Source of the DNA: Mayamaea pseudoterrestris
Taxonomy: Eukaryota
Length of the DNA stretch: 20,000 nucleotides
NCBI GenBank assembly: GCA_027923505.1
Contig: BROI01000028.1
Location: forward strand, 362,243 to 382,242
Reading direction: 5' to 3'
A program made the position numbers and the translations under genes. The notes beneath the pieces are model-generated. The model did no database searches and was not told the DNA's origin. It saw only the letters and a list, made by a program, of their open reading frames with translations. Below, one piece after another: positions 1 through 20,000 of the stretch; position 1 is the stretch's first letter; each line of letters opens with the position of its first letter.

Positions 1-471
1 GGAAAGCTTGTATCGGTGGGTTACTTTCACACTCGCGGAGAGACGCCCCGCCACTTTCAGTTTGACGCAAGTGGTCAGTATCTGCTCGTGGCCAATCAAG
101 ACTCTGACTCGATTGCAGTTTTCAACTTTAACTTGTCCAGCGGGGACCTGAAATACACGGGCAACGAGTATCGCGTTCCATCTCCCAACTTTGTCTGCTG
201 CTGCCCCATGCAGCGGGATGACGAAGCGGAGGACCCTGCGGATGACCACGTCGTCACCAACATTTGCTTGGTCGACAACAAGGCGGGCAGTGTGGCTTCC
301 TCGGGTGAGGAAGAGTCTGACAATTCTTGCGTCATGGCGGTCGAAGCGCAACCCAACAAGCAGCAGGAGCATGCGTTGGAAAGCGAATTGAATCGCGCGC
401 GCCAAGAGATTGACGACCTCAAAAAGCAGCTTGCAGAGCTGCGTGTTGTTGGCACCACTTTGGTAGAATAG
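1..471 (+). CDS. 3' part of a lactonase / 6-phosphogluconolactonase-like (cycloisomerase-2 family) beta-propeller protein, with acidic linker and C-terminal coiled-coil tail; 5' end lies outside the window
   Basis: Frame is open from base 1 (GKLVSVGYFHTRGETPRHFQFDASGQYLLVANQDSDSIAVF...PSPNFV). G.TPR.F...G..L.VANQ.S..I.VF matches the last blades of the Pgl/YbhE lactonase family. Stop TAG at 469-471. Confidence 0.8.
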   Translation, partial: GKLVSVGYFHTRGETPRHFQFDASGQYLLVANQDSDSIAVFNFNLSSGDLKYTGNEYRVPSPNFVCCCPMQRDDEAEDPADDHVVTNICLVDNKAGSVASSGEEESDNSCVMAVEAQPNKQQEHALESELNRARQEIDDLKKQLAELRVVGTTLVE

Positions 472-728
472 AGGTTATTGCTTGACAGTGGAAGCAGCAG
501 GGTAGTTTGGTGTATGCGTGATAGTCTACCGGCGTGAGATTCCAAGGTATATGCACGTATTTAACAGAGAATAGTGAAGGCGTTTTAATTAGAAAGGCAA
601 CATAAAAATCATTTGTAGTGGCGCGAGGATGTTTGCCATTGCTACTTGTACATGTAACCTCTTAGCGATATGCCATGCTACATAACTATGCGCAGACAGA
701 AAGACTCCGTACGTATATTGTATGGTTT

Positions 729-1271
729 TTAAGATAGCTTTGGCTCTGGTCCACCGAAAAAGTAATGCTCACAGAGATCCTTGATATTTTGCTTCCTCAT
801 GGCGCCTTCGATTCTTCCTTTCAAGACAGCCTTGGCTCCATCGGTTCCAGCTTCGTCTTTACCATCTGCTTCATACTTGTCCAAAAACAACAATGTTGGA
901 AGTCCCATAATGCTTAGTCGCGCCGCCATGGCTTCGTCCTTGTCGGTATCAAGTTTGACGAATCGCACCTTGCCCTTGAGTTCCTGCGCGGCCGACTCAA
1001 ACTCGGGCGCCATGAGTAGGCAGGGTCCGCACCAAGTGGCGTAAGCGTCCACGACGAGGGGCAACTCCCATTCCTGTAGCATGACTTCCAACTCTTCGCC
1101 AGAAACGAGTGGGGCAGCCTTTGTATCTTCCGACGAGGACGCAGCGAAGAATTGGCGATTGGTCGAAATGCGTTGCTTTGCACTAGGCGACTGTAGCGTG
1201 ACAAATCCATTAGCTGCGACTGAGCATAGCAGTAGCACCTGAAGGACTGATGCTGCTAGAGAGGATACCAT
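729..1271 (-). CDS. Thioredoxin, Trx-z/CITRX-like, probably plastid-targeted
   Basis: Intronless 180-aa ORF with a WCGPC active site in the context PLVVDAYATWCGPCLLMA...VKLDTD...GLPTLLF, resembling plant Trx z. Hydrophobic signal peptide ends in ANG-FV (ASAFAP-like), followed by a Ser/Arg-rich transit-like stretch. Confidence 0.85.
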   Translation of the reverse strand: MVSSLAASVLQVLLLCSVAANGFVTLQSPSAKQRISTNRQFFAASSSEDTKAAPLVSGEELEVMLQEWELPLVVDAYATWCGPCLLMAPEFESAAQELKGKVRFVKLDTDKDEAMAARLSIMGLPTLLFLDKYEADGKDEAGTDGAKAVLKGRIEGAMRKQNIKDLCEHYFFGGPEPKLS

Positions 1272-1691
1272 GGTAGATTGTTCCGCAAACTCTTGGTCGG
1301 TTCGTTAGCTTGCATAGCTTGCATTCACAGTCAACGATCGACTCATCGTCGACTGCCGACCATCTTCAACGAGCGCGCGAATGGAAGCTGATGTCGGAGT
1401 GGGAATGAAAAGACATTTTTTGATATCGCTCACAATGACCCTTGCAACACACTCGGCGCTTCGCAATTCCACGACCAGAACAGTCCAGTCAGGTGAGAAT
1501 TAGTTCAAGGACGAGTTTTGTTATGGTGATGAGAGAGTACTGTCGCGTGCTTGTGGGGATCCGGCAATTGTCTTGTGCCATTATTTTTACTCGAGATTAT
1601 GGCCTCGGGTCGAGACGCCTTCGCGACTGTGAGCTCAACCACGGAAGGAACAACCTCATCATCTCGCTAATCACTGCTGCCTTTAACCATC

Positions 1692-2854
1692 ATGTCATCT
1701 CCTTCGACAGTGCAAGAAGAAGAAGAAAAGTTAGATTCTAGCATGCCGGAGCTGATTGACTTTGACTCCAAGAGCGACAATCCTCGATCCATCGTCGAGG
1801 ATGACTCATCGCGCTTCGTCAACAAGATTATTGTTATTACTGGAGCTGGAGGAATGCTGGGACGCGAGGGATGCATATTCTTTTGCAAACGAGGAGCAAG
1901 GGTGGCAGCCTTGGATCAAGATAAGGCCGGGTTGAAGGAAACCTTTCTAGCGCTACAGACGGAACTGGGACATGAAGGTGCGTAGTAGTTTATAGTGGAG
2001 CTAAAGTAGAGCGAGATTAGAGCAGGCGCCTGTCCTGTCGACTTGCTTTTGAAGTAGCCTTTAACTCAAAACTCTGCCGCTTTACACGCACAGACTTTGA
2101 TTTCAAAACATACGCGTGCGATGTAACAGATGCACAGCAAGTTGCTGAGACGGTGGACTCGATTGTTGAGCGCTTCGGCCGGATAGACTGCCTTTGGAAC
2201 AATGCTGGCTATCAAGGCAAGATTCAGCAGCTACTAGATTACGATGTTGTCGACTTTGAGCGCGTCATGAAGATTAATGTTACAGGTAAGATTGTATGGA
2301 GTGCAGCCGTGCAGCCTGTTGTCTAATGTTGATATCGGCTCGATGCTCAATTCGCTGACGCCTTCGCCTCTTCTACTTGTTCTTGACCAGGCATGTTCAT
2401 TGTGCTCCAGGCATGTGCCCGCCACATGGCAAAGAATGCCGACGGAGCTCGATACTCTATCGTCAACACGTCATCCGTGGCCGGCATGCGAGGAACACCC
2501 GCCATGGTTGCCTATGCTAGCAGCAAGGCGGCGGTACTATCCATGACCATTTGCGCCTCCAAGGAATTGGCCCCCAACAATATTCGAGTCAATGCCGTCA
2601 GCCCAGCGTTGATTGGACCAGGCATGATGTGGGATCGACAGAATCGACTGCACGCCGAATCCGGAAGTCCCTACTTTGACAGCGATCCAGAAAAGGTGGG
2701 ACAGGCAAAAATAAACGGAGTTCCGCTCAAGCGGCTTGGCACCGTGGAGGAAGTCGTCAATGTTGTCGCCTTTTTGCTGAGCGATGACTCGAGCTATATG
2801 ACTGGAAGCAACTTGGTTGTGGATGGTGGAATGGCTGGGGGTCTTCGGGCGTAA
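1692..2854 (+). CDS. Classical short-chain dehydrogenase/reductase (SDR); exons 1692-1977, 2094-2285, 2391-2854
   Basis: TGAGGMLG Rossmann motif (exon 1), CDVTD and NNAG (exon 2), NTSS, YASSK catalytic motif, IRVNAVSP and VVDGG (exon 3). GT-AG introns 1978-2093 and 2286-2390 join the exons in frame. Confidence 0.9.
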
Positions 2855-3155
2855 TGACGCCATTGGTGTGTCGTTGTTGCTATTTCCTTCACTTCTTACT
2901 CTAGAAGTGTTGGGCTAACTTAGCTCATCTCATAGACTCATTTTATAAGCGATTCTTTGTACTAGCGAGTAAAGAATTGTATAGCCTGATAAGCTCGACT
3001 ACAGCTGATAGATCGTGTCGCTCCGCAACTCACTCTCCTCACCATTGGTTCTTGTGCTTTCGGAAACGGACGGCTGCGAGCGGCAGTCGACGACAGCCCA
3101 TGAATGATGGGCTGCGAATCGCGATGAGTGGCCATCCCACATCTCACCCGAGACG

Positions 3156-4854
3156 ATGAGCGAAGAAGAAAAGCCTAGGTATGAATGAAGGATGCACTGC
3201 ACTGTATAGTTTCAAGTCGGGACGTGAAGAGGCATAGCTACGCTGAGTGCACTAGCGATGCTCCTTCGATCGATTTTCATTGTCCACGTTTGCGCGCGGA
3301 GGGTTATGGGTTGCATTTTCTGTGCTGCAGTCGCCTGACATGCACTGCTTTCTCCTTTGTTGTAACGCAGTGAGCAACCTCCAGCTGAGAATGGAGGTGA
3401 AGGAGGTGGACCTCCTGAAGATGGCGGCCTGACGGACGCCGACTTTGAGTCCAATTGGGATGAAACGACTGAGACGTTTGACGCCATGGAGTTGCCCGAG
3501 GAGCTTTTGCGTGGAATTTTCAGCTACGGTTTTGAGAAACCTTCGGCTATTCAGCAGCGAGCGATCAAGCCAGTCATGCTTGGAAAGGATTTGATTGCTC
3601 AAGCGCAGTCTGGAACGGTGAGTTAGCAAGGGCAAGAGATGAGAAAGTGGTGCTGTCGGAATGCATTCTTTCGCGCACGCACTCGTATGCATTGACTCAA
3701 GGAAGGATGAAACAAGTTAAACACCATCTTTCGAGTCTGAATAGAGTCATCCTCGACGTGTCTGACAATCTTAACTCGAAATCAGACCTTGGAGACAGCA
3801 TGCTATTAAATGTGTCGGCAGTGGCATTCTTAACTAGTGTTTGCTCACCTCTCCTACTTCTCCTATTTACTTTTAGGGTAAAACGGCGACTTTTGCGGTC
3901 GGGACTCTTGCCAAGGTCGACCCCAAGCTCAAGGAATGCCAAGCGCTTATCCTTGCCCCGACGCGCGAGCTGGCACAGCAGATTCAAAAGGTTGTGCTTG
4001 CCCTTGGCGACTACATGGACATTGCGGTGCATGCCTGCGTCGGAGGAACGGCAGTGCGGGACGACATTCGCACCTTGAACGATGGTGTTCATGTTGTTGT
4101 TGGAACACCTGGTCGCGTCTTTGACATGATCAATCGTCGCGCTCTTCGACTCGACAGCATTAAGCAGTTTATGCTCGACGAGGCCGACGAGATGCTTTCC
4201 CGTGGATTCAAGGATCAAATCTATGACATTTTCAAGTTTTTGCCCGAAACCGTTCAAGTGTGTCTTTTCTCGGCTACCATGCCTTTGGAAGTTCTTGAAG
4301 TGACGGAGCGATTCATGCGCTCGCCAGTCCGCATCCTTGTCAAGAAGGATGAGCTTACGCTCGAAGGTATCAAGCAGTTTTACATTGCGGTTGAGCGCGA
4401 GGACTGGAAGCTTGACACACTCTGCGATCTTTACGAGACGTTGACCATTACGCAGGCGATTATCTACTGCAACACGCGGCGTAAGGTTGACTGGCTTCGG
4501 GACGAGATGCAGGCTCGCGACTTTACCGTCTCATGCATGCACGGAGACATGGATCAGCGCGAGCGTGATATCATTATGCGAGAGTTTCGTACCGGCTCGT
4601 CTCGTGTATTGATCACGACGGATCTTTTGGCTCGTGGTATTGATGTTCAACAGGTGTCGTTGGTCATTAACTTTGACCTACCGACGAATCGCGAGAATTA
4701 CATTCATCGTATCGGTCGTTCCGGACGATTTGGTCGTAAGGGTGTGGCGATTAACTTTCTCACAGAGGGTGATGTTCGTTATCTTCGTGATATTGAGCAG
4801 TTTTACACCACGGAGATTACGGAAATGCCGCAGGATGTTGCCGATTTGATCTAA
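3156..4854 (+). CDS. eIF4A: Eukaryotic translation initiation factor 4A (DEAD-box RNA helicase); exons 3156-3178, 3371-3617, 3877-4854
   Basis: Q motif [21 protein letters not shown] split by intron 3618-3876, then PTRELA, TPGRV, DEAD, SAT, ARGID and [13 protein letters not shown]. Intron 1 (3179-3370, GTATGA...GCAG) joins a short MSEEEKPS exon in frame; this first exon is less certain. Confidence 0.95.
3696..3794 (+). ncRNA. Candidate intronic box C/D snoRNA (SNORD2/snR39B-like LSU rRNA methylation guide) in eIF4A intron 2
   Basis: C-like box AGGATGA (3704-3710). Antisense element CACCATCTTTCG (3722-3733) is complementary to conserved LSU rRNA CGAAAGATGGTG and is followed by a CTGA box at 3737-3740. 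Further CTGA at 3762-3765 and CAGA at 3783-3786. Flanking CAAGG/CCTTG can form a terminal stem. Confidence 0.65.
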
Positions 4855-4954
4855 TGCAAACGCGGGTAATAGGGCGCGCTAAGAAATGATAGTATATGTA
4901 TTAATGTTTCTCATTGATATCATTGTAAAATGTAAATATGCTTGAGCTGCATGT

Positions 4955-5857
4955 TTAATAGTGCGTTTCCTTGTCTTCAGGTTTGAGTGGTTCCTCGCCA
5001 CTGTTTGAAATCGTCACGACTTCCACAGGCTTGCCGCCATAAGTTCCCTTTGCTTCCACCTGCTCGAGCAAGTCATGTCCTTCAAGTACAACGCCAAAAG
5101 CTACATGCTTGTCATTCAGCCATTGCGTCTTGACTAGTGTAATGAGAAACTGGCTTCCATTGCAGTTTCGCTCGCCGCAATTGCTCATGGAAAGCATGTA
5201 GGGCCGATTGTGGTTCACTTCAAATGACTCGTCCTCAAATGGATGACCAAAAATGGACTCGCCACCAACGCCGGTGCCATGTGTAAAATCTCCGCCTGTA
5301 GAAAAATGAAAGTGAAGGAAGCTTGTTGAGATGATCAAGTAAATTATGGAACAGTTTGCGTATTCGTCACAAACTTTCGTACACCACCAATACCGATGCT
5401 AGCATGATTCATCCATACCTTGAATGAAAAAATCTGGAATAATTCGATGAAACGTTGTGCCCTTGTAGCAAAGCTCCTTGCCCGACTTTTGGCCGACGCC
5501 TACATTACACTTGGCCAAGCCGAGAAAATTTTCTACAGTCTTCGGGGTCGTCTTGCCAAACAAGCCAAAGACAATCTTCCCAATATTTTGGCCTGCTACT
5601 TCAATTTCAAAAAATACGCGATGCGTAATCTCTGGTAATGTTCTGCAAGTGTGAAATAGGCGAGTGTTGTGCGACAAAGAGGTGAGCAGGCGACACAAAA
5701 TGACGTGTCGCTTCATCTCCGCGTTTCATGGTCCAACTCACGGAATTGGGTCCATTAGCGGCGGAATCGCCTTTTTCATTGGCACCTCATGGCCTGCACA
5801 TGCTCTCCAGAGAGAGACTACAAGTAGGGTCCTGCAACAGCGCCGCATCGTGCCCAT
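4955..5857 (-). CDS. Cyclophilin-type peptidyl-prolyl cis-trans isomerase (CypB-like, possible signal peptide); exons 5857-5742, 5642-5419, 5295-4955
   Basis: ITHRVFFEI, GLFGKTTPKTVENF, YKGTTFHRIIPDFFIQG/GDFTHGTGVGGESIFG, NGSQFLIT, WLNDKHVAFGVVLEG. GT-AG introns 5741-5643 and 5418-5296 give an in-frame join. Start may be 5857 or 5848. Confidence 0.9.
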
Positions 5858-6053
5858 GTTGAATTGTGTCGGACGAGCGACGAGGGACGACTCGGAGGCT
5901 CGGAGGCACGCCGGCGTGCGTTGGAAGCCATGCTCGTGCAAGCCTGGCAGGCGCGCATGGCACTTCCAAATGCACATGCAGAATATACCGGTATGGTGGC
6001 AAGCTTAGTACACCAAGACTTACTTCATTTGGTATGTAGAAGTGTATTGATTA

Positions 6054-6369
6054 CTAATCCTGATGGCTTGCTCCAACTGACTGCATAATATAAGTGCTTG
6101 GAAACAAACTGGGAGCTACAGAGGGTGACAAGCTTGGTGCTGCACTGGGAAGGGCACTGGGAAGGAGACTGGGTCCTGTGCCAGGTGAGTCACTGGGCTT
6201 GGCACACAGATCACTTGATGGCAAACTTGATGGCAAGCTGCTGGGTTGGGTACTTTGAGCCAAACTTGGAGCTACAGAGGGTAACAAGCTTGATGCTGTA
6301 CTTGGAAGGAAACTGGGTCATGCGCTAGGTGACTCACTTTGGGCTTGGCACTTGGATCACTTGACAGAG
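6054..6369 (-). pseudogene. Degenerate Pro/Ser-rich (PSxxPS) mucin-like repeat remnant with an internal ~156-bp duplication
   Basis: Minus strand reads PSVAPSLAQSTQPSSLPSSLPSS...PSALPSAAPSLSPSVAPSL. CAAACTGGGAGCTACAGAGGGTGACAAGCTTG at 6105 recurs as CAAACTTGGAGCTACAGAGGGTAACAAGCTTG at 6261. No convincing start; the upstream side abuts the satellite. Confidence 0.45.
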
Positions 6370-8363
6370 CATCATTATTCCATCTGCGCTACAAGATGGT
6401 TTGCCTGGCTGGTGACTTAGTAGACTGCAATGAGATTGGTGACAAGTTGTCACCAGTCTCAGCCCGCAGATGCCGTGACATTCAAACGCCCCTACAGCAA
6501 GCCCTGTAGGTGCCCAAAATACACCAGAATGGTGCCAACATCATTATTCAGGCTGCGCTACAAGATGGTATGCCTGGCTAGTGTCTCAGGGGATGGCAAT
6601 GTATTTGGTGACAACTTGTCACCAGTCTCAGCCCGCAGATGCCGTGACATTCAAACGCCCCTACAGCAAGCCCTGTAGGTGCCCAAAATACACCAGAATG
6701 GTGCCAACATCATTATTCAGGCTGCGCTACAAGATGGTAGGCTTGGCTGGTGTCTCAGGGGATGGCAATGTATTTGGTGACAACTTGTCACCAGTCTCAG
6801 CCCACAGATGCCATGACATTCAAATGCCCCCACAGCAAGCCATGTGAACATCCAAATTACACCAGAATGATGCCAACATCATTAATCAGGCTGCGTTAGA
6901 TGATGGTATGCTTGATTAGTGTCTCAGGGGATGGCAAGTCTCAGCCTGCAGATGCCGTGACATTCAAACGCCCCTACAGCAGGCCCTGTAGGTGCCCAAA
7001 TGACACCAGAATGGTGCCAACATCATTATTCAGGCTGCGCTACAAGATGGTAGGCCTGGCTGGTGTCTCAGGGGATGGCAATGTATTTGGTGACAACTTG
7101 TCACCAGTCTCAGCCCGCAGATGCCGTGACATTCAAACGCCCCTACAGCAAGCCCTGTAGGTGCCCAAAATGCACCAGAATGGTGCCAACATCATTATTC
7201 AGGCTGCGCTACAAGATGGTATGCTTGGCTGGTGTCTCAGGGGATGGCAATGTAATTGGTGACAACTTGTCACCAGTCTCAGCCTGCAGATGCCGTGACA
7301 TTCAAACGCCCCTACAGCAGGCCCTGTAGGTGCCCAAAATACACCAGAATGGTGCCAACATCATTATTCAGGCTGCGCTACAAGATGGTAGGCTTGGCTG
7401 GTGTCTCAGGGGATGGCAATGATATTGGTGACAACTTGTCACCAGTCTCAGCCCGCAGATGCCGTGACATTCAAACGCCCCTACAGCAAGCCCTGTAGGT
7501 GCCCAAAATACACCAGAATGGTGCCAACATCATTATTCAGGCTGCGCTACAAGATGGTATGCTTGGCTGGTGTCTCAGGGGATGACAATGTATTTGGTGA
7601 CAACTTGTCACCAGTCTCAGCCCGCAGATGCCGTGACATTCAAACGCCCCTACAGCAAGCCCTGTAGGTACCCAAAATACACACAAATGGTGCCAACATC
7701 ATGATTCAGGCTGCGCTACAAGATGGTAGGCCTGGCTAGTGTCTCAGGGGATGGCAATGATATTGGTGACAACTTGTCACCAGTCTCAGCCCGCAGATGC
7801 CGTGACATTCAAATGCCCCTACAGCAGGCCATGTAGGTGCCCAAAATACACCAGAATGGTGCCAACATCATTATTCAGGCTGCGCTACAAGATGGTATGC
7901 CTGGCTAGTGTCTCAGGGGATGGCAATGATATTGGTGACAACTTGTCACCAGTCTCAGCCTGCAGATGCCGTGACATTCAAACGCCCCTACAGCAGGCCC
8001 TGTAGGTGCCCAAAATACACCAGAATGGTGCCAACATCATTATTCAGGCTGCGCTACAAGATGGTAGGCTTGGCTGGTGTCTCAGGGGATGGCAATGTAT
8101 TTGGTGACAACTTGTCACCAGTCTCAGCCTGCAGATGCCGGGACATTCAAACGCCCCTACAGCAAGCCCTGTAGGTACCCCAAATACACCAGAAGGGTGC
8201 CAACATCATTATTCAGGCTGCTCTACAAGATGGTAGGCTTGGCTGGTGTCTCAGGGGATGGCAATGTATTTGGTGACAACTTGTCACCAGTCTCAGCCGC
8301 AGATGCCGTGACATTCAAACGCCCCTACAGCAAGCCCTGTAGGTGCCTAAAATACACCCAAAG
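6370..8363. repeat. 169-bp tandem satellite, left arm (~12 units)
   Basis: GGTGACAACTTGTCACC recurs at 6607, 6776, 7089 and onward at a 169-bp period. One unit counted by hand has 88/169 G+C (~52%). The first unit is diverged, and one unit near 6937 has a 25-bp deletion. Confidence 0.97.
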
Positions 8364-8692
8364 TGACACGATAATATCAGACGAACCTTTATTCCAGCGA
8401 CTACAATGGACTCGGAGCGATCAACCTCTTCGTCCAGCGTAAAGCAAACAAACAAACTCAATTGCTAGAATAGTGCATGTTACTCGCTACTCTACTCGTG
8501 CGCTTCTTTCTCGTTCTCACTGGGTTCACGGTCGAGGTTCACGCCTCGATCGTCAGCGATTTCACTCATGTATGTGAGGATTCGGTCACAAGTGTGACTC
8601 AACCCTGCACAGGATTAAATGCATACAAAACACAGGTAGCTAACCGTCTTGTCATGAGACGCAGGTCAACTCAACTCAATAATATTGTGTCA
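8364..8692 (-). repeat. 3' LTR (329 bp)
   Basis: Begins TGACAC and ends GTGTCA (terminal inverted repeat). Matches 14831-15159 except one base (G8656 vs A15123). Confidence 0.97.
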
Positions 8693-8700
8693 TCCCCCTT
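8693..8700 (-). other. Polypurine tract (plus-strand primer) of the retrotransposon
   Basis: Minus strand reads AAGGGGGA directly before the TG of the 3' LTR; the pol stop codon (8704-8706) lies just upstream. Confidence 0.8.
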
Positions 8701-8703
8701 GAT

Positions 8704-11364
8704 CTAGGCTTGTGACAACGATCGGTTTGCCGTATCACCCTTCCAGAAAAGAATCGGAATGATCAGGGGTCGGAACGTGGCATGCGGCAAGAACTTGGTA
8801 AGAACGTCGGCGACGTTCTGCTTGCCGAAGATGTGCTCAAAGTACAGAACATTGCTTGCAATGGCCTCGCGAACTCGGTGGTAGGCGAGCGCATTGTGTC
8901 GCTTAGAAAGTGTGGAGTGCGGGATCGTTGACGACTTCTTGACACTTTCGTTGTCGCCGAACATCCAGGCTGGTCCACTCAAAGGAACTCCCAACATGCG
9001 TAGGGAGTATCGGAAATCCATAATCTGTTCCGTCGCGGTCTTGGCGACGACGAACTCGGATCCGTACGTTGCAGTCTCAACAGTATTCTGACGCTTGCAG
9101 AACCATTCGACGGGCGTCTGGTTCAGGAAATGCAGGACTCCCATTGCGGAACGTCCAGTAGTGTAATCATGGTACAGGTTCGCGTCCATAAAGGTAGTTA
9201 GTTGCACAGGCTTGCCCTTCGGGATCGGCATGTTCCACGGAAGCTCTTCGCTTGAGTTGCCGTAGACCGATTGCAACCAATCATACTTGGTAGGTTCCCC
9301 GTGATCGACGATCTTCGTCCGGAAACGAATCGCCGCATCAGGGTACTCAGCTAGGTAACCGCAGACTCGCTTGGCTCGGTCCAGGTGTCCGCGGCGCGGG
9401 GCGCAGCGGAATCGGCCAAGTGTCATTACGGCACAATGAATGTCAAGTCGACATAGGGTCACTGCCCACTGGAGGGCACCGATAAGAGACTGGTACTGTT
9501 GAATGCCACGGGCATCCAGCTCTTCGGTAAGGTCAAGTTCGGGGTGGTCCCCGTCGTCAAGCGGTGACTTGCGCTTGCGTGGCTTCTCGCCAAACATGGT
9601 CTCGTAGTTCTTGAGCATGCGACCGACGTAGGTCTTCGCGCTCATGCAGAGGGTTCCATCGGGATCACGATAGAAGTCGGCTCCAAGGTGATACTTGATG
9701 TCGCCGACGCCCTTCAACTTGTACTTGTACTTCTCCTTGAGGAGGTCCGTGAAGGCTTGTGGATCTTTCATGGCCATAGCCAGATCGTCGACGAACACGC
9801 CGACGTACTCGTAGTGAGTGCCACAGTCTTTCATCCAGACGTCAGGGTCCGCGTAACTGGGGTAGAATCCAATGTCGCGGAGTGTGTCGGCAAAGTGCTC
9901 ATGCCAACGCGCGCCAGAAGTGCGCAATCCGTATAGTGCCTTGTAGATGACCAAGGTATGGCCTTCCAATGGTCCAAACTCGGGACCGGCAACAATGTAG
10001 ACCTTTTCCTTGGTCTTGGCCTCGAGGTAGGCGTTACCGACATCGGCAGCCCAAAACTTGAGGTCGTTCAGTTCAGCTAACAGTGCTATGGTTCGGATGC
10101 TTCGCATAGATACAACGCCGGAGTAGGCGGAGTCCTTGGGCGGAGCGGTCAAATGTCCCCCGGCGACGAGTCGGGCCTTACGTCGTAGATCGTTCTTGCA
10201 GTCGAAAACAAGATGCGCGTTGATGCGCTTCCAGTCACTTTCCATGAAGGCACCGATGCCCTTGTCGATGAAAGTGTCGTACTCGTGTAGCTGCTCCATC
10301 TCAGTCTTGACGGCGTCAGCCCACAGGGTGTTTCCATTAGCAGCGTCGAGGCGGTTCGCTTCCTTCCAGGTATTAGGAACTTGAACGCCAAACTTGAAAC
10401 GCGCTTCTTGGACACGGTTCTTCTTTGCAGCCTTGCACATGCGGTTAAACATTTTAGTGCGTCCTGCCATGCGCCTCAAGCGCTTCCATCCATCCTTTTC
10501 CAGCATACCCTTGCGCTTGCCGTACTCGGCAACGGTCACAGGGTCGGACTTGATAATCAATGCGAGTGGCTCCCAGGTCTTCTCGCCATTTGCCCATTGG
10601 ATGAGCAAGTTGTAGGATGAGCCGCGATACGTAGCGTCGGCTTGTGTCAGTGGACCTTCATGTCCGTCAATGAAATCAAACTTGTAGTACTGGTCGTCGT
10701 TGTCATCGTCCCCCAGTCGTAAAGAATCTTGCCGCTCGCACAGGTCGGCTAGTTCGTTGTAGGTAATAAGCTCGTCGACGTCGCCGTCGCCGAGACTCAA
10801 TCGGAACTTGATGATCTTGTGGTTGGCTTCATCGCGATCGTTCAGTTGCTCGATAACCTTGTAACGTCGCGTGGAGCCGTCTTCCTCGTCAAGAAGGACA
10901 GTGCGTCCCATCAGTTCAGCCGGAGTAAAGGACGGCATGGGTCCGTCGGGATCCAAACCGGCTAACTCGGCAGCGCTTTCCAACGTGAATGCGTCTTCAT
11001 CCACGGTTCCCCCAGAATCAGGCGCTGGGGTCGGTGTAAGGTCGTGTTCAAACACCGGACCGACTAGGTCATACTCATCGTCAAACTCGTCGACAGTTTC
11101 GACTTGGACTCGTTCACGCGCGGGGCGCGCGTCGAAGACAGGTTCCGCGAACAGTGGTCGTTCGGACTCGGGTTCAGGAGCGCTTTCAGCTTCAGCGCGT
11201 AGGTTACGTCCTTCGGAGAAGGGACGAACGTTGGATCGGACGACAACCATTCCAGTCCGATCGGATCGAACTTGGTACGTGAGGATGTCACCCTTGTTCT
11301 CTGCAATGCCGACCCAGCGTCCTGCTGCTTCCTTGGTGTGAGGAAATGTCGGCGGCTCGTCAGC
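8704..11364 (-). CDS. pol: pol 3' part: integrase C-terminus, chromodomain-like module, reverse transcriptase, RNase H
   Basis: Frame is open from 11364 (ADEPPTFPHTKEAAGRWVGIAENKGDILTY). RT motifs KARLVAGG, ADVGNAYL, KALYGLRTSG, DPDVW, VFVDD. RNase H motifs FMDANL, ATYGSEF, FGDNESV, NVADVLTK. It continues the upstream ORF after a +1 frame break. Confidence 0.92.
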   Translation of the reverse strand, partial: ADEPPTFPHTKEAAGRWVGIAENKGDILTYQVRSDRTGMVVVRSNVRPFSEGRNLRAEAESAPEPESERPLFAEPVFDARPARERVQVETVDEFDDEYDLVGPVFEHDLTPTPAPDSGGTVDEDAFTLESAAELAGLDPDGPMPSFTPAELMGRTVLLDEEDGSTRRYKVIEQLNDRDEANHKIIKFRLSLGDGDVDELITYNELADLCERQDSLRLGDDDNDDQYYKFDFIDGHEGPLTQADATYRGSSYNLLIQWANGEKTWEPLALIIKSDPVTVAEYGKRKGMLEKDGWKRLRRMAGRTKMFNRMCKAAKKNRVQEARFKFGVQVPNTWKEANRLDAANGNTLWADAVKTEMEQLHEYDTFIDKGIGAFMESDWKRINAHLVFDCKNDLRRKARLVAGGHLTAPPKDSAYSGVVSMRSIRTIALLAELNDLKFWAADVGNAYLEAKTKEKVYIVAGPEFGPLEGHTLVIYKALYGLRTSGARWHEHFADTLRDIGFYPSYADPDVWMKDCGTHYEYVGVFVDDLAMAMKDPQAFTDLLKEKYKYKLKGVGDIKYHLGADFYRDPDGTLCMSAKTYVGRMLKNYETMFGEKPRKRKSPLDDGDHPELDLTEELDARGIQQYQSLIGALQWAVTLCRLDIHCAVMTLGRFRCAPRRGHLDRAKRVCGYLAEYPDAAIRFRTKIVDHGEPTKYDWLQSVYGNSSEELPWNMPIPKGKPVQLTTFMDANLYHDYTTGRSAMGVLHFLNQTPVEWFCKRQNTVETATYGSEFVVAKTATEQIMDFRYSLRMLGVPLSGPAWMFGDNESVKKSSTIPHSTLSKRHNALAYHRVREAIASNVLYFEHIFGKQNVADVLTKFLPHATFRPLIIPILFWKGDTANRSLSQA

Positions 11365-14300
11365 TCACTGGGACTCGTTCCCAGAACTTGAACTGCAGGA
11401 ACGGCGAAATGTCGGGTACTCGGTTGAAGGCGGCTTCAGTAGGGGTCTTCCAGTTGAGGGACTCGGTCGCCAGATTGTTGAATAAGGCGATTACGTACAG
11501 CGCGCATAGGAGCCAGGCTCCAGCGGGTGCGCCCGTACGGTTCATGATGTTCTGGACTGATGACTTGACTTCTTGGATGCGACGCTCGGCAGGGTTCTGG
11601 TTCTGGTATCCGGGCTCGCTCTGTTGGTCACGAATCGCGTAGAATCGCAACAAGGTTTCAACTTGCTTCCCGAGCTGCACTCGCGAGTTATCGCTAATGA
11701 GCAAGTCGGGAGCGCCAATGTCTCGAATGAAGTCTTCGAGCGCCATGGGCATGTCACTCTCGGTTCTCAGTGGGTATCCCCTCGTCAGCAGACTCTTCTT
11801 GCCGACGAACAGTTGCATCATCTTGCATCCGCCATGGCCGCGGATTCCGTCGTTAAAGGCGGCTTCCTTGGAAAACCAGGTATCTGTCGCCGTATCGTCA
11901 TGGAAACGAACCACATTGGCGGCAGGGAATCGCGACTTAAAGTGTTGGCGAAATGGGGTGTGTGCCGATGCACGGAAAAGCTGTGTCGTATTCTTAATGG
12001 TGCGCTTGACTCGTTCAAGTGGCGTGTAGCCAAGGTAGGGTCGAAGCGCTTGGTAGTCAGGTTCTTGTGGCATTATGCGTCGTGCATTGGCTTGGCGCGT
12101 CGTATCAGCCTGATTGCGATCGACATACTGCACCACACGTTCCACTGAGTTCATGTTGTTCCGGTAGGTGGCGTCGCCGAAGTCGTCCATGCGGGCGTCG
12201 ACGAAACCGTGGGCTTCTTCCAATTCGTCGAAGCGACGATTAAACTCAAGTTCTTCTTCGTTCCATTCATTATCCAACTCCGCCGGATCCCAAAGGGTGT
12301 CCGCAGAGAAAATGACCGTCGGATACATTTCCAACTCTGCGTCCGTCGGCGGACGCATATCCATACGAGGCAAGCCGTCACGGATCGCCAAGGGGATGGT
12401 CTTGCCACAACTGGTGACAATGGCTTGTGCTCCATTCTGGGAGCGAGCGACGTCGTCGATCAGATGGCCGAACGAACGAAGCTGCGATGGAGCATGAATG
12501 GATTCAGCACCGTCGTACAAAGCATACTGGTTGAACTGACCGATAATGGGTCCAGTCCGAGTCTCAATCAATGCGACGCCAGTTCCGACTTGGAGGTCGC
12601 GAACCGTGTGGTCGCTCAAACCTGTCACGTTACACGTGTGGTTGGTAGTACTCAAGATTCTCATATCGCTTCCAGCGAGTCCACCGTTCGCACCGCCGTC
12701 AATCAGCGATCCTTGGCGGGTCTCGTTGCTGCGAGCTCGATTCACAGTGTAGCGCACCGATACCATTGCGCGGTACCGACGGCCGTCGCTTCCCATAAAC
12801 TCTTGCTGGGTGTTATTCGCAGCTTGAGTGCGAGACGACGCGGCGTTCGCAAGGAAAGATCTAATCATGTCATCCGGTGCACCTTGAGTGGCTGTCGTCG
12901 GGGCGATCGAGACAGCGTCATTCTGATACAAGATTGTACCAGGCACCGATGCAGCCGCTTGTGACTGCTGGTTATTCGCGCGGTTGCCATTGTTCGCGCG
13001 TCTTGTGGTGGCGGGTCTTGGGACGGCTTCGCGTCGAGCCATGAGCTGAGCGTATTCGTCCTCGTTAAGTCGGCCGAGTCGTTCGTACGACATGTACGAC
13101 CAGGGGTTCTGCAACAACTGTTCAAAGTTCAGATAATCGCCAGGGAATCGTTCCCGATGCGCTTGCGTACCGGCTGCTGGTAGTGGCGCGGAAGAGCCTC
13201 GTCCTCCGGAACCGCGGCTCACTTGGGAACCGCGTCCACCGTCTCGTCCACCGCCGCGTCCGCCTTGGCCGCCGCGTCCTCCGCCGCGACCGGAACCGCG
13301 TCCATTACCACGTCCTTGCCCGGAAGTGTTCGCGTTGTTCGCTTGGCGGTCGGCGTTCTTCTTGCCCTTGTTCAACTTGGCGTTCTTGTTATCGATGCGC
13401 AAAGCCTGCTGCGACAACATGTCGAAAAGACAGTCATAGTCTTCCGTCACGACGGCATCTGGATCACCATTTGCACTGATGATGCGTCGTCGTTCAAATG
13501 TCAAGTGCTGGTCGAATGTCGTGCACGTGGGACCGAATTCTTCGTCGCCCTCCACTGCAGCTCGGAGCCAGTAGTACTTCTTCTTGTCATCCGTCACTCC
13601 AGGACGGAACTCTTCGAGATTCTTCATGAGCTGTTCGATGTAGTTTAGGAACTTGTAGTGTCCTTTCGTCCAGGTCGAATCTAGGCGAATCGTCGCAAGC
13701 TTGGCTTGCAGTTCGTTCGCTTGGATGGTAGCTAACTCGCCGGAACCAAACTTGGTCGCGAGTTCGCGATAGACGCTCTGAGCGTCAGACTTGTCGCCGT
13801 ACTTCATTAGGAGCGACTGGTATCCAGGGACTTCGAGACAATTGCGAAACGCAGTGTACATGAAGATTTGCTGATTCTCGAACTCTTCCTTCTCTTCTTC
13901 CGTGACTGGTACGTACTTGCTGTCGAGCACGTTAGAACAGCCATGGAGCTTGGCGATTGCCTTGGTAGACGCGCTCCAACTCAACCACGCGTGGGGATGT
14001 TGGAACGTTTTGTAGTCCTTGTAGTCTCGCTTCGTCTTGAGGTTCGAGAAACGACCCTTGGCATCTTCTTCCTTTTCGGCCTTCTCAGCCTTGATGGTCT
14101 CATTTTCGAGTTGCTTGGCAAGTAGCTCGGCTTGCTTCTTCTTGGACTCGAGGACGTAGTATCCTTCTTCACGCCTTCGACCGATTTCTTGTTCGGCGAG
14201 TTTCTCTTGGAATTGCTCGAGCTTGCCTAAATCAAGCAACGCCCACTTCCTGGTGTTCGGGGGTCCGTCGTGCATGTTAAACCATTCGCATGCATCGAGG

Positions 14301-14611
14301 ATAAGGTTCACGTAGACTGGTGCTAGTGTCGTTTCGTATCGTTCTGGGGCGGCGGCTGCTTGTTCCTCGGCCGGTTCCTCGGCCGGCTCGTCGCCGGGCT
14401 GCGCATCGTCGGGTTGCGCGCCTTCTTCTTGCTCAACGCCAGCTGGGATGGCGGCTCTGTCGACCCAGTAGGGGGCTTCAAGTTGCTCCTTGGTCAATCT
14501 CAACATCTGGGTAGTGGTGGTTACATTCCAAAACAAGAACGCTTCTTGGATGTCTCGTCCGAAAACGTTCGTGCAGAGAAGCTGCAAAGCTTCCGCAGTA
14601 ATCGCAACCAT
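11360..14611 (-). CDS. gag-pol: gag-protease-integrase core polyprotein (likely ATG at 14611)
   Basis: Helical Gag region, RGG-rich nucleocapsid-like tract, protease-like LIDGGANGGLAG, and integrase core DTATDTWF...ISDNS...QNPAERRIQE. Ends at TGA 11362-11360 shortly after FWERV. Confidence 0.9.
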   Translation of the reverse strand: MVAITAEALQLLCTNVFGRDIQEAFLFWNVTTTTQMLRLTKEQLEAPYWVDRAAIPAGVEQEEGAQPDDAQPGDEPAEEPAEEQAAAAPERYETTLAPVYVNLILDACEWFNMHDGPPNTRKWALLDLGKLEQFQEKLAEQEIGRRREEGYYVLESKKKQAELLAKQLENETIKAEKAEKEEDAKGRFSNLKTKRDYKDYKTFQHPHAWLSWSASTKAIAKLHGCSNVLDSKYVPVTEEEKEEFENQQIFMYTAFRNCLEVPGYQSLLMKYGDKSDAQSVYRELATKFGSGELATIQANELQAKLATIRLDSTWTKGHYKFLNYIEQLMKNLEEFRPGVTDDKKKYYWLRAAVEGDEEFGPTCTTFDQHLTFERRRIISANGDPDAVVTEDYDCLFDMLSQQALRIDNKNAKLNKGKKNADRQANNANTSGQGRGNGRGSGRGGGRGGQGGRGGGRDGGRGSQVSRGSGGRGSSAPLPAAGTQAHRERFPGDYLNFEQLLQNPWSYMSYERLGRLNEDEYAQLMARREAVPRPATTRRANNGNRANNQQSQAAASVPGTILYQNDAVSIAPTTATQGAPDDMIRSFLANAASSRTQAANNTQQEFMGSDGRRYRAMVSVRYTVNRARSNETRQGSLIDGGANGGLAGSDMRILSTTNHTCNVTGLSDHTVRDLQVGTGVALIETRTGPIIGQFNQYALYDGAESIHAPSQLRSFGHLIDDVARSQNGAQAIVTSCGKTIPLAIRDGLPRMDMRPPTDAELEMYPTVIFSADTLWDPAELDNEWNEEELEFNRRFDELEEAHGFVDARMDDFGDATYRNNMNSVERVVQYVDRNQADTTRQANARRIMPQEPDYQALRPYLGYTPLERVKRTIKNTTQLFRASAHTPFRQHFKSRFPAANVVRFHDDTATDTWFSKEAAFNDGIRGHGGCKMMQLFVGKKSLLTRGYPLRTESDMPMALEDFIRDIGAPDLLISDNSRVQLGKQVETLLRFYAIRDQQSEPGYQNQNPAERRIQEVKSSVQNIMNRTGAPAGAWLLCALYVIALFNNLATESLNWKTPTEAAFNRVPDISPFLQFKFWERVPVS

Positions 14612-14819
14612 GATAGTGAATACCTCGCTTTCCGCAAGTCCTTTCTCACACAACAACCGCTCTCAATGCGGTCGAGCCTTATACGATCCTGTTCTACGCG
14701 CTCGTGCCAAGTATTCGGATTGACGACGCCGCAAGGAATCTGCTCTTTCTCTCTCAATTTCTCGATTCTTTCACTCTCTCTCTTTCGCACAGCTCTCTCA
14801 GGTCAAGACAAGCTAGCAA

Positions 14820-14830
14820 GACTGTTAATC
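14820..14830 (-). other. Putative primer-binding site complementary to the tRNA-Asn(GUU) anticodon stem-loop
   Basis: Directly after the 5' LTR the minus strand reads GATTAACAGTC, not TGG. Its complement GACTGTTAATC equals GA-CUGUUAA-UC, matching tRNA positions ~30-40 with anticodon GUU. Confidence 0.65.
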
Positions 14831-15159
14831 TGACACGATAATATCAGACGAACCTTTATTCCAGCGACTACAATGGACTCGGAGCGATCAACCTCTTCGT
14901 CCAGCGTAAAGCAAACAAACAAACTCAATTGCTAGAATAGTGCATGTTACTCGCTACTCTACTCGTGCGCTTCTTTCTCGTTCTCACTGGGTTCACGGTC
15001 GAGGTTCACGCCTCGATCGTCAGCGATTTCACTCATGTATGTGAGGATTCGGTCACAAGTGTGACTCAACCCTGCACAGGATTAAATGCATACAAAACAC
15101 AGGTAGCTAACCGTCTTGTCATAAGACGCAGGTCAACTCAACTCAATAATATTGTGTCA
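14831..15159 (-). repeat. 5' LTR (329 bp)
   Basis: TGACAC...GTGTCA; 328/329 identical to 8364-8692; followed on the + strand by the TSD CAAAG. Confidence 0.97.
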
Positions 15160-18100
15160 CAAAGTGCCAACATCATTATTCCACGATGGTTGCCTGGCTG
15201 TGTCTCAGGGAGCAATGTTGTGACAACTTGTCACCAGTCTCAGCCCGCAGATGCCATGACATTCAAACGCCCCTACAGCAAGCCCTGTAGGTGCCCAAAA
15301 TACACCAGAATGGTGCCAACATCATTATTCAGGCTGCGCTACAAGATGGTATGCCTGGCTGGTGTCTCAGGGGATGGCAATGTATTTGGTGACAACTTGT
15401 CACCAGTCTCAGCCCGCAGATGCCGTGACATTCAAACGCCCCTACAGCAAGCCCTGTAGGTGCCCAAAATACACCAGAATGGTGCCAACATCATTATTCA
15501 GGCTGCGCTACAAGATGGTATGCCTGGCTAGTGTCTCAGGGGATGGAAATGTATATTGGTAACAACTTGTCACCAGTCTCAGCCCGCGGATGCCGTGACA
15601 TTCAAACGCCCCTACAGCAGGCCATGTAGGTACCCAAAATGACACCAGAATGGTGCCAACATCATTAGTCGGGCTGCGCGACAAGATGTTAAGCCTGGCT
15701 GGTGTCTCAGGGGATGGCAATGTATTTGGTGACAACTTGTCACCAGTCTCAGCCTGCAGATGCCGTGACATTCCAGCGCCCCTACAGCAGGCCTCCCTAT
15801 ATACACCAGATGGTTGCCAACATCATTATTCAGGCTGCGCTACAAGATGGTATGCTTGGCTGGTGTCTCTCAGGGGACGGCAATGTATATTGGTGACAAC
15901 TTGTCACCAGTCTCAGCCTGCAATGCCGTGACATTCAACCCCCCTACAGCAGGCCATGTATACACCCAAATGACACCAGAATGGTGCCAACATCATTTTT
16001 CAGGCTGCGCTACAAGCTGGTATGCCTGGCTGGTGTTGCAGGGGATGGCAATGTGATTGGTGACAACTTGTCACCAGTCTCAGCCTGCAGATGCCGTGAC
16101 ATTCAAACGCCCCTACAGCAAGCCATGTAGTACACCAAAATACACCAGAATGGTGCCAACATCATTATTCAGGCTGCGCTACAAGATGGTAGGCCTGGCT
16201 AGTGTCTCAGGGGACGGCAATGATATTGGTGACAACTTGTCACCAGTCTCAGCCTGCAGATGCCATGACATTCAAACGCCCCTACAGCAAGCCCTGTAGG
16301 TGCCCAAAATACACCAGAATGGTGCCAACATCATTGTTCAGGCTGCGCTACAAGATGGTATGCCTGGCTGGTGTCTCAGGGGATGGCAATGTATTTGGTG
16401 ACAACTTGTCACCAGTCTCAGCCTGCAGATGCCTTGACATTCAAACACCCCTACAGCAAGCCATGTATACACCCAAATCAAACCAGAATGGTGCCAACAT
16501 CATTTTTCAGGCTGCGCTACAAGATGGTATGCCTGGCTAGTGTGTCTCAGGGGACGGCAATGTATATTGGTGACAACTTGTCACCAGTCTCAGCCTGCAG
16601 ATGCCGTGACATTCAAATGCCCCTACAGCAGGCCATGTAGGTGCACCCAAAATGACACCAGAATGGTGCCAACATCATTATTCAGGCTGCGCTACAAGAT
16701 GGTATGCCTGGCTGGTGTCTCAGGGGATGGCAATGTTATTGGTGACAACTTGTCACCAGTCTCAGCCTGCAGATGCCATGACATTCAAATGCCCCTACAG
16801 CAAGCCATGTAGGTGCACCCAAAATGACACCAGAATAGTGCCAAGATCATTATTCAGGCTGCGCTACAAGATGGTATGCCTGGCTGGTGTCTCAGGGGAC
16901 CGCAATGTTTTTTGGTGACAACTTGTCACCAGTCTCAGCCCGCAGATGCCAAGACATTCAAACGCCCCTACAGCAAGCCCTGTAGTGCACCAAAATGACA
17001 CCAGAATGGTGCCAACATCATTATTCAAGCTGCGCTACAAGATGGTATGCCTGGCTGGTGTCTCAGGGGACGGCAATGTATATTGGTGACAACTTGTCAC
17101 CAGTCTCAGCCTGCAGATGCCGTGACATTCAAACGCCCCTACAGCAGGCCCTGTAGTACACCAAAATGACACCAGAATGGTGCCAACTACATTATTCAGG
17201 CTGCGCTACAAGATGGTAGGCTTGGATGGTGTCTCAGGGGATGGCAATGTATTTGGTGACAACTTGTCACCAGTCTCAGCCTGCAGATGCCGTGACATTC
17301 AAACGCCCCTACAGCAGGCCCTGTAGGTGCTTAAATTACACCAGAATGGTGCCAACATCATTTTTCAGGCTGCGCTACAAGTTGGTATGCCTAGCTGGTG
17401 TCTCCAGGGATGGCAATGTAATTGGTGACAACTTGTCACCAGTCTCAGCCTGCAGATGCCGTGACATTCAAACGCCCCTACAGCAAGCCCTGTAGGAGCC
17501 CAAATTACACCAGAATGGTGCCAACATCATTATTCAGGCTGCGCTACAAGATGGTATGCCTGGCTAGTGTCTCAGGGGACGGTAATGATATTGGTGACAA
17601 CTTGTCACCAGTCTCAGCCTGCAGATGCCGTGACATTCAAATGCCCCTACAGCAAGCCCTGTAGGTGCCCAAAATACACCAGAATGGTGCCAACATCATC
17701 ATTCAGCGTGCGCTACAAGATGGTATGCCTGGCTAGTGTCTCAGGGGATGGCAATGTGATTGGTGACAACTTGTCACCCGTCTCAGCCTGCGGATGCCGT
17801 GACATTCAGATGCCCCTACAGCAGGCCATGTATACACCCAAATGACACCAGAATGGTGCCAACATCATTATTCAGGCTGCGCTACAAGATGGTAGGCTTG
17901 GCTGGTGTCTCAGGGGATGGCAATGTATTTGGTGACAACTTGTCACCAGTCTCAGCCTGCAGATGCCGTGACATTCAAACGCCCCTACAGCAAGCCCTGT
18001 ATACACCCAAATGACACCAGAATGGTGCCAACATCATTAGTCAGGCTGCGCTACAAGATGGTATGCCTGGCTAGTGTCTCAGGGGACGGCAATGATATTG

Positions 18101-20000
18101 GTGACAACTTGTCACCAGTCTCAGCCTGCAGATGCCATGACATTCAAACGCCCCTACAGCAAGCCCTGTATACACCCAAATGACACCAGAATGGTGCCAA
18201 CATCATTATTCAGGCTGCGCTACAAGATGGTAGGCCTGGCTGGTGTCTCAGGGGACGGCAATGTATATTGGTGACAACTTGTCACCAGTCTCAGCCCGCA
18301 GATGCCGTGACATTCAAACGCCCCTACAGCAAGCCCTGTAGTGCACCAAAATGACACCAGAATGGTGCCAACATCATTATTCAGGCTGCGCTACAAGATG
18401 GTATGCCTGGCTGGTGTCTCAGGGGATGGCAATGTATATTGGTGACAACTTGTCACCAGTCTCAGCCCGCAGATGCCGTGACATTCAAACGCCCCTACAG
18501 CAAGCCGTGTAGTGCACCAAAATGACACCAGAATGGTGCCAACATCATTATTCAGGCTGCGCTACAAGATGGTATGCCTGGCTGGTGTCTCAGGGGATGG
18601 CAATGTATATTGGTGACAACTTGTCACCAGTCTCAGCCCGCAGATGCCGTGACATTCAAACGCCCCTACAGCAAGCCCTGTAGGTGCCCCAAATGACACC
18701 AGAATGGTGCCAACATCATTATTCAGGCTGCGCTACAAGATGGTAGGCCTGGCTGGTGTCTCAGGGGATGGCAATGTCATTGGTGACAACTTGTCACCAG
18801 TCTCAGCCTGCAGATGCCGTGACATTCAAACGCCCCTACAGCAAGCCCTGTAGGTGCCCAAAATACACCAGAATGGTGCCAACATCATTATTCAGGCTGC
18901 GCTACAAGATGGTAGGCCTGGCTGGTGTCTCAGGGGATGGCAATGTATTTGGTGACAACTTTGTCACCAGTCTCAGCCCGCAGATGCCGTGACATTCAAA
19001 CGCCCCTACAGCAAGCCCTGTAGGTGCCCAAAATACACCAGAATGGTGCCAACATCATTATTCAGGCTGCGCTACAAGATGGTAGGCCTGGCTGGTGTCT
19101 CAGGGGATGGCATTGTATATTGGTGACAACTTGTCACCAGTCTCAGCCCGCAGATGCCGTGACATTCAAACGCCCCTACAGCAAGCCCTGTAGGTGCCCA
19201 AAATACACCAGAATGGTGCCAACATCATTATTCAGGCTGCGCTACAAGATGGTAGGCCTGGCTGGTGTCTCAGGGGATGGCAATGTATTTGGTGACAACT
19301 TGTCACCAGTCTCAGCCCGCAGATGCCGTGACATTCAAACGCCCCTACAGCAGGCCCTGTAGGTGCCCAAAATACACCAGAATGGTGCCAACATCATTAT
19401 TCAGGCTGCGCTACAAGATGGTAGGCCTGGCTGGTGTCTCAGGGGATGGCATTGTATATATTTGGTGACAACTTGTCACCAGTCTCAGCCCGCAGATGCC
19501 GTGACATTCAAACGCCCCTACAGCAAGGCCCTGTAGGTGCACCCAAATGACACCAGAATGGTGCCAACATCATTATTCAGGCTGCGCTACAAGATGGTAG
19601 GCTTGGCTGGTGTCTCAGGGGATGGCAATGTATTTGGTGACAACTTGTCACCAGTCTCAGCCCGCAGATGCCGTGACATTCAAACGCCCCTACGGCAAGC
19701 CCTGTAGTACCCAAAATACACCAGAATGGTGCCAACATCATTATTCAGGCTGCGCTACACGATGTTAGGCTTGGCTGGTGTCTCAGGGGATGGCAATGTA
19801 TTCGGTGACAACTTGTCACCAGTCTCAGCCCGCAGATGCCATGGCATTCAAACGTCCCTACAGCAAGCCCTGTAGGTGCCCAAAATACACCACAATGGTG
19901 CCACCATCATTATTCAGGCTGCGCTACACGATGGTATGCCTGGCTAGTGTCTCAGGGGATGGCAATGTATTTGGTGACAACTTGTCACCAGTCTCCAACC
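15160..20000. repeat. 169-bp tandem satellite, right arm (~28-29 units, continues past the window end)
   Basis: Same monomer and orientation as the left arm. It resumes in phase after the TSD (...ATACACC-CAAAG-TGCCAACATC...). Units vary by a few substitutions and small indels. Confidence 0.97.

Follow-up and report, generated by a model that had tools for sequence, protein, structure and literature searches.

The retrotransposon in the window (the whole stretch of 20,000 nucleotides of DNA that was analyzed) raises the question of which molecule primes its reverse transcription. An initial annotation of this DNA had claimed that the 5' LTR is not followed by a site complementary to a tRNA CCA end, and this proved correct: the first TGG past the LTR lies at +122 (window position 14709), and since the 121 bases before it contain no TGG, there is no site in this stretch for a tRNA CCA end. 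The bases that adjoin the LTR are complementary to the anticodon arm of tRNA-Asn(GUU). We propose that the sequence at 14830 to 14817, GATTAACAGTCTTG, is in all probability the minus-strand primer-binding site of a diatom Ty1/copia-type element, with a fragment of the tRNA-Asn anticodon arm as its putative primer.

The window contains a complete Ty1/copia-type LTR retrotransposon of 6,796 bp on its minus strand (Table 1). The long reading frames between the LTRs are found on the minus strand, so the element reads from right to left, and a leader separates the 5' LTR (15159 to 14831) from ORF1. The features of the Ty1/copia group are all present, namely TG...CA LTRs, a 5-bp target-site duplication, a polypurine tract, and an integrase encoded upstream of an RVT_2 reverse transcriptase. 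ORF2 matched Pfam RVT_2, the Copia-type reverse transcriptase, with an E value of 9.3e-26. In relatives, the region that aligned with the C-terminal part of ORF1 is the integrase, and two of these relatives carry Pfam rve (PF00665); the Pfam search of ORF1 of the window itself gave no rve and nothing in the integrase part. The relatives have GGGGAG where the window has its polypurine tract. The element in the window is a young Copia-type element.

Table 1. Coordinates of the features of the retrotransposon in the window.
Feature	Coordinates	Strand	Description
5' LTR	14831-15159	-	329 bp, TG...CA ends; 1 mismatch relative to 8364-8692
3' LTR	8364-8692	-	329 bp, TG...CA ends; sole mismatch at 8656
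Putative primer-binding site, GATTAACAGTCTTG	14817-14830	-	Adjoins 5' LTR; complementary to tRNA-Asn(GUU) nt 27-40
ORF1 (gag with RGG-rich tail, protease, integrase)	11360-14611	-	ATG 14611-14609, stop 11362-11360
ORF2 (integrase end, chromo-like stretch, RVT_2 reverse transcriptase, RNase H)	8704-11364	-	+1 frame relative to ORF1
Polypurine tract, AAGGGGGA (element orientation)	8693-8700	-	Immediately 5' of 3' LTR
Target-site duplication, 5' side of element	15160-15164	.	CAAAG on plus strand
Target-site duplication, 3' side of element	8359-8363	.	CAAAG on plus strand; 5 bp

The element interrupts a tandem satellite with a unit of 169 bp, which occupies 6286 to 8363 and 15165 to 20000, and the 5-bp duplication is intact. 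Stretches of a 171-bp variant occur within the satellite, for example at 16819 to 17289 and 18175 to 18816. To the left of the satellite, the eIF4A gene has diatoms exclusively as its best named relatives (92-93% identity), indicating that the host is a diatom. It is one of several compact host genes in positions 1 to 6000, along with a lactonase-like ORF, a thioredoxin with a signal-peptide-like N-terminus, a short-chain dehydrogenase, and a cyclophilin.

The two reading frames of the element are separated by a +1 frame break at 11360 to 11364 (minus strand), inside the C-terminal integrase region. Programmed frameshifts are known at the gag/pol border, and the break is not located there. Moreover, all 14 aligned relatives keep one frame across the corresponding point. 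The break is due to a mutation in this copy or to an error in the assembly, and because it falls in the integrase, the copy in the window may rely on other copies for its proteins. Two stretches of the encoded proteins deserve mention. Between the integrase and the reverse transcriptase, a conserved segment (about 10465 to 10797, minus strand; ORF2 residues about 190 to 300) resembles a chromodomain by eye and has the pattern ...HQGPL...YKGSSYNVLV.W.DGS.T.EPL...DDPVT.A.YA in the relatives; Pfam gave no match to this stretch even at an E value of 5. The gag part of ORF1 ends in an arginine/glycine-rich (RGG) tract (about 13150 to 13300, minus strand; residues about 450 to 500), at a place often taken by a zinc knuckle in Copia gag proteins, and the same tract is seen at the end of gag in the relatives P0013 and P0112.

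At the 5' LTR edge, window positions 14811 to 14830 read AGCTAGCAAGACTGTTAATC on the plus strand, the reverse complement of which is GATTAACAGTCTTGCTAGCT. In the orientation of the element, the 5' LTR ends with ...ATCGTGTCA and is followed directly by GATTAACAGTCTTGCTAGCT, so that the site starts at the first base past the 5' LTR, exactly where the initial annotation had placed it. That annotation had assigned 20 nt to the site. Its position next to the LTR held, but its length did not: the complementarity to tRNA-Asn stops after 14 bases (nt 27-40), and the usable site is 14 nt long. They are complementary to the entire 5' strand of the stem in the anticodon arm, to its loop CUGUUAA, and to the two bases with which the 3' strand opens. 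An Rfam search of the window returned no match.

To identify the tRNA, we compared the site with annotated tRNA genes. The first 11 bases have the complement GACTGTTAATC, which is identical in 11 of 11 positions to nt 30-40 of asnT of Escherichia coli K-12, an annotated tRNA-Asn(GUU) whose linear positions coincide with standard tRNA numbering, the anticodon falling at 34-36. From the 14 bases of the window, the complete arm is predicted to be CAAGA / CUGUUAA / UCUUG (17 nt). This 17-mer had 57 matches in viral contigs of IMG/VR, and 46 of them lie in genes that ARAGORN calls as tRNA-Asn(gtt); hence, a tRNA-Asn with exactly the predicted arm exists, the match at nt 27-29 (CAA) being to viral tRNA-Asn genes and not to the gene of the host diatom. 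The assignment to the anticodon arm of tRNA-Asn(GUU) made in the initial annotation was thus upheld. The tRNA-Asn of one of these loci, in a giant-virus bin (L092), looks eukaryote-like by eye when set against eukaryotic tRNA-Asn. The arm with a UGCGA stem, which corresponds to the commonest class among the relatives of the element (see below), was found at 97 places in IMG/VR. Among the matches listed, 78 of 80 are in tRNA-Asn genes, and at least 11 are in giant-virus bins. Position 26 is a G in 71 of these 78 genes and in 32 of the 46 viral tRNA-Asn genes with the arm of the window. Logan contigs from four runs that contain the host (X1, X2, X3, and X5) were compared at 80% likeness with L092:1-617. 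This viral locus has three tRNA genes, one of them a tRNA-Asn gene with the predicted arm, and the comparison recovered a single 36-base piece, which lies outside the tRNAs. No RNA run was among the sequencing runs listed as containing the host.

Conservation among relatives was one of the checks that the initial annotation had called for. A profile built from ORF1 and its homologues retrieved 76 loci on metagenome contigs, with 31-50% identity; such contigs may be chimeric or contain dead copies. ARAGORN found no tRNA gene in the window or in these 76 loci. The exact 11-mer GATTAACAGTC is present in 30 of the 76. In the 420,912 bases of all the loci together, the coding strand has 32 such sites and the opposite strand has one; this exceeds chance, which would give about 0.1 per strand. 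The two bases that precede it are CA in 28 of the 30 loci and TA in the remaining 2. Twenty-nine sites, the one in the window included, had enough flanking sequence for comparison (30 upstream and 40 downstream bases; L024 and L053, too short downstream, were left out) and, with L019/L023 and L036/L038 merged, they fell into 27 families with unrelated flanks, 26 of them besides the window's own. Across these families, information content is found in the last six bases of the LTR and in the 11-mer, to a lesser degree in the three bases that follow, and is close to zero outside positions -6 to +13. Thus, the motif was found to be invariant where the flanking sequences bear no relation to each other.

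The three bases after the 11-mer fall into classes: GCA in 13 families, TTG in 7 (including the window), GTA in 3, TCG in 2, and ACA and TGA in 1 each. Base 15 is uninformative (0.18 bit). With an invariant 11-mer, class-wise variation at bases 12-14, and an uninformative base 15, the paired stretch comes to 14 bases, or nt 27-40 of the tRNA. In terms of the tRNA, the complement of nt 30-40 never varies among the 27 families, while that of nt 27-29 varies in blocks. Base 15 is the C that would match G26 in only 4 of the 20 families of the GCA and TTG classes, and pairing stops at nt 27 whatever the identity of nt 26.

The relatives also allowed us to examine where the site lies within the element. 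Many of their contigs carry one LTR and are circularly permuted. In nine of these, the GGGGAG tract and an inverted terminal repeat mark out an LTR of 286-538 bp, and the motif begins exactly where this LTR ends. When 66 rows of the integrase core were placed in a maximum-likelihood tree, every major branch was seen to hold Asn-type sites, exact or variant; the row nearest to the window is L022, with 55% identity. The 27 flank families come from marine, freshwater, and soil metagenomes. No other type of primer site was established in any relative, with 35 of the 76 metagenome loci being short contigs or loci in which the junction was not located.

Scans of other collections extended this set. 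Sixteen further Copia loci (L232-L247) were found in prokaryote genome bins, all of them in MAGs labelled as bacteria, and nine of the sixteen are in a single Sphingobacteriaceae MAG; this MAG has five exact sites, and in each of them the extension is TTG. The MAGs with Copia loci hold eukaryotic contaminant contigs. In this contaminated MAG, G001, the 11-mer occurs in the five element sites and in one tRNA-Asn that looks bacterial by eye, and no eukaryotic tRNA-Asn containing it was found there. No ORF2 relatives turned up in a scan of viral contigs. A miniature element with the Asn-type site GATTAACAGTCTTG lies on L259 (640-1060, minus strand), a contig from a Sphingobacteriaceae-labelled MAG. 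Its order is LTR end, GATTAACAGTCTTG, about 150 bases, GGGGAG, and an LTR that starts with TGTCAAG and has a tRNA-like sequence inside; ARAGORN calls this sequence tRNA-Asn, but its loop lacks U33. In the published description available, the Helenus TRIMs (PMC10886601) resemble this miniature element.

Could the 11-mer be some other cis element, such as a packaging or dimerization signal, with a merely coincidental likeness to tRNA-Asn? By eye, many relatives (L001, L004, L009, L012, and others) do have an inverted repeat at +12 to +40 that starts with the last bases of the site (GTAACTC...GAGTTAC in L009). Nevertheless, we regard this explanation as very improbable, because 11 of 11 bases match nt 30-40 of tRNA-Asn, the position is exactly that of a primer site with no CCA-type site within 121 bases, and bases 12-14 vary in classes, both of the classes examined existing as stems of tRNA-Asn. 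The same arrangement, for other tRNAs, has also been published in Copia elements. Two further candidates were rejected. One was a conserved hairpin site as described for the fungal GalEa elements, in which the 9 bp after the LTR are palindromic together with its final A (PMC5445492, as far as the excerpted text goes); A followed by GATTAACAGTC is not a palindrome. The other was an extension of the site of L004 into the D arm of the tRNA, which is more likely a local hairpin; the 23-mer made up of this site and its extension had no match in viral contigs.

The absence of a TGG-type site would also suit self-priming of the Tf1 type, in which the 5' end of the transcript folds back onto the site and is cut, and which has been reported in some Copia lineages, for instance TAR (PMC6317226, in the portion available). 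This mechanism requires a complement of the site near the start of the transcript, yet a complement of the 11-mer with up to one mismatch was found within 1 kb upstream in none of the 27 families, and at two mismatches there were two matches against 2.4 expected. In addition, the LTRs are unrelated between families, yet the site is invariant. Self-priming therefore appears extremely improbable here, and we return to tRNA-Asn as the source of the primer.

For tRNA-Asn, we hypothesize the following course of events. The primer would be a 5' fragment of tRNA-Asn of about 40 nt, cut within the anticodon stem, as for tRNA-iMet in copia and Ty5. Because the site adjoins U5, we infer that the 3'-OH of the primer must be that of C40. 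Extension of this fragment by reverse transcriptase into U5-R would yield minus-strand strong-stop DNA. Production of plus-strand strong-stop DNA would then copy the primer back from nt 40 and halt before nt 26, and such a halt would explain why the complementarity ends sharply after 14 bases throughout the family. Likewise, re-copying the site from the tRNA in every cycle would account for its invariance. G26 of tRNAs is commonly N2,N2-dimethylated, and this modification blocks reverse transcriptases; we suggest that dimethylated G26 could be the cause of the stop. On this mechanism, nt 27-40 of the cytosolic tRNA-Asn(GUU) of the host are expected to be CAAGACUGUUAAUC.

The step that leaves most room for an alternative is the origin of the priming 3' end. 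The loop of mature tRNA-Asn that takes part in the pairing is heavily modified, with the bulky queuosine at position 34 and t6A at position 37. One may thus suppose that tRNA-Asn anneals through its anticodon arm while the 3' end arises in some other way, from an unmodified precursor or from a fragment with another end, or that a different small RNA with the same 14 bases takes its place. In agreement with fragments of another kind, Phaeodactylum tricornutum is reported to have fragments of about 19 nt, running from the D loop to the anticodon, from nine tRNAs that the main text, in the part available, leaves unnamed (PMC4247016). However, the site directly adjoins the terminal CA of the LTR in 28 of 30 loci, which in the standard model makes nt 40 the last paired base. 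As for a different small RNA, the anticodon GUU defines tRNA-Asn, and nearly all matches to the 17-nt arms fall within genes for this tRNA (46/57 for the arm of the window and 78 of the 80 listed for the UGCGA arm). We therefore consider a 3' end of other origin unlikely, and a tRNA-Asn fragment ending at C40 remains our preferred primer.

Not every relative has the exact 11-mer. Eleven further loci, 10 of them metagenomic and one (L241) from a bacterial MAG, carry a near-variant of the site at the same place. In eight of these (L005, L011, L025, L030, L034, L044, L063, and L241), a base is inserted between the complements of nt 35 and nt 32, the insertion in L034 being of three bases. In three (L011, L020, and L063), a T-to-C change is found opposite nt 37, and L011 and L063 have both changes. 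Neither is present in L008 and L074, whose differences lie further 3', starting at the complement of nt 32. Across the 11 variants, the complements of the stem are nearly untouched. An insertion in the complement of the loop, as in the eight loci, would count against pairing, since the duplex would be bulged. For L025, a candidate CCA-type site was rejected, as the 1,656-bp repeat of this locus consists of the LTR plus the leader; by comparison with its close relative L031, the true junction is ...ACTTGTCA followed directly by GATTAATCAGTCTTG, an Asn-type site with one extra T. In L044, the start of the contig (about 60 to 480), which precedes the first ATG in the frame that was matched, contains three tandem copies of a unit of about 110 bases. 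Each copy has GGGTGTTAATCTGA, a sequence similar to the site's tRNA-sense strand; the Asn-type variant site of this locus is near the opposite end of the contig, at 6664.

The insertions cluster around queuosine-34, the T-to-C change lies exactly opposite the t6A position 37, and the complementarity has its sharp limit between nt 27 and 26. From this pattern, we tentatively raise the possibility, though we hold it to be somewhat doubtful, that the variant sites are scars left by reverse transcriptase copying a modified tRNA, the site being rewritten from the tRNA-Asn fragment in each cycle. If this were so, the genomic copies would record a polymerase that stumbles at Q34 and t6A37 and stops at modified G26, and diatoms would have to make a defined 5' fragment of tRNA-Asn that ends at C40. 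The D-loop/anticodon tRNA fragments of P. tricornutum, left unexplained in the available text of PMC4247016, could then be fragments of this kind.

Taken together, these results would assign a primer to a large family of Copia elements from diatoms and other protists and add tRNA-Asn to the short list of tRNAs that are used through their anticodon arm. The mechanism of priming by half-tRNAs is already known, and the family of the window would be another user of it and not a new mechanism. Standard LTR annotation tools look for sites complementary to the CCA end and would report such elements as having no primer site; the invariant 14-mer can serve as a practical tag with which to search the genomes of diatoms, and metagenomes, for the elements and for their non-autonomous partners. 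The proposed mechanism also predicts a specific 40-nt fragment of tRNA-Asn in diatoms.

The closest precedents for the mechanism are copia of Drosophila and Ty5 of yeast, for which half-tRNA priming by tRNA-iMet is described (PMC5371799, in the part available). Like the element in the window, they belong to the Ty1/copia superfamily, their site adjoins the 5' LTR and pairs with the anticodon stem-loop, and an internally cut tRNA is needed. The register also appears to be the same, as the initial annotation had supposed, with the 3' end of the predicted primer at nt 40. The difference is in the tRNA, which is the initiator tRNA-Met in copia and Ty5 and tRNA-Asn(GUU) here, and the diatom element is only distantly related to them in protein sequence. 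In addition, priming was shown biochemically for copia and Ty5, whereas for the element in the window it is deduced from the sequence.

With respect to the host, the element can be compared by description with CoDi, the diatom Copia elements of Maumus et al. 2009 (PMC2806351). The accessible part of that paper describes a diatom host, the order PR-INT-RT-RH, and young elements with near-identical LTRs, all as in the window, and the host group fits; its main text, to the same extent, contains no description of primer sites. A search of the literature likewise found no description of an Asn anticodon-arm site in diatom elements, nor a general account of such a site.

In its printed sequence, the nearest site is that of FunCo1 of ascomycetes, ATTAAGAGTCT, attributed to an internal region of tRNA-Lys (PMC5445492, excerpted text). 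It differs from bases 2-12 of the window site at one position, the complement of anticodon base 34, in keeping with the anticodon CUU (Lys) in filamentous ascomycete hosts and GUU (Asn) in the diatom; the likeness is that of the printed site alone. A mutated site for tRNA-Lys(CUU) was rejected for the family of the window, as the complement of GUU is invariant in 30 of 30 loci.

Other lineages use the anticodon arms of further tRNAs. According to the available portions of the respective papers, the plant elements Osser, Bryco, and Gymco-II use 1/2 tRNA-Met and Bianca uses 1/2 tRNA-Ile (PMC6317226), elements of Candida albicans have internal sites for tRNA-Arg(UCU) or tRNA-iMet (PMC4139406), and the Copia elements and Helenus TRIMs of the Pucciniales use tRNA-Tyr, Ile, Asp, or iMet by way of the anticodon loop (PMC10886601). 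The occurrence of Tyr and Asp in the Pucciniales contradicts the idea that all anticodon-arm primers come from tRNAs that read ANN codons. As far as these sources describe them, the plant, Candida, and Pucciniales elements are, like the element in the window, Copia-type or non-autonomous partners with anticodon-arm sites, and the type of primer is characteristic of the lineage. The initial annotation had not recognized tRNA-Asn as a standard primer for this mechanism, and it is indeed rarely reported; nonetheless, it is not without mention, since in the accessible text of Kojima 2024 (PMC10886601) tRNA-Asn-GTT is chosen once as the primer, for fungal Helenus TRIMs, and Asp is listed elsewhere in its place. 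That mention, to the extent of this text, concerns one TRIM lineage of fungi, whereas in the family to which the window belongs, tRNA-Asn would be the primer of an entire, widespread family of autonomous elements.
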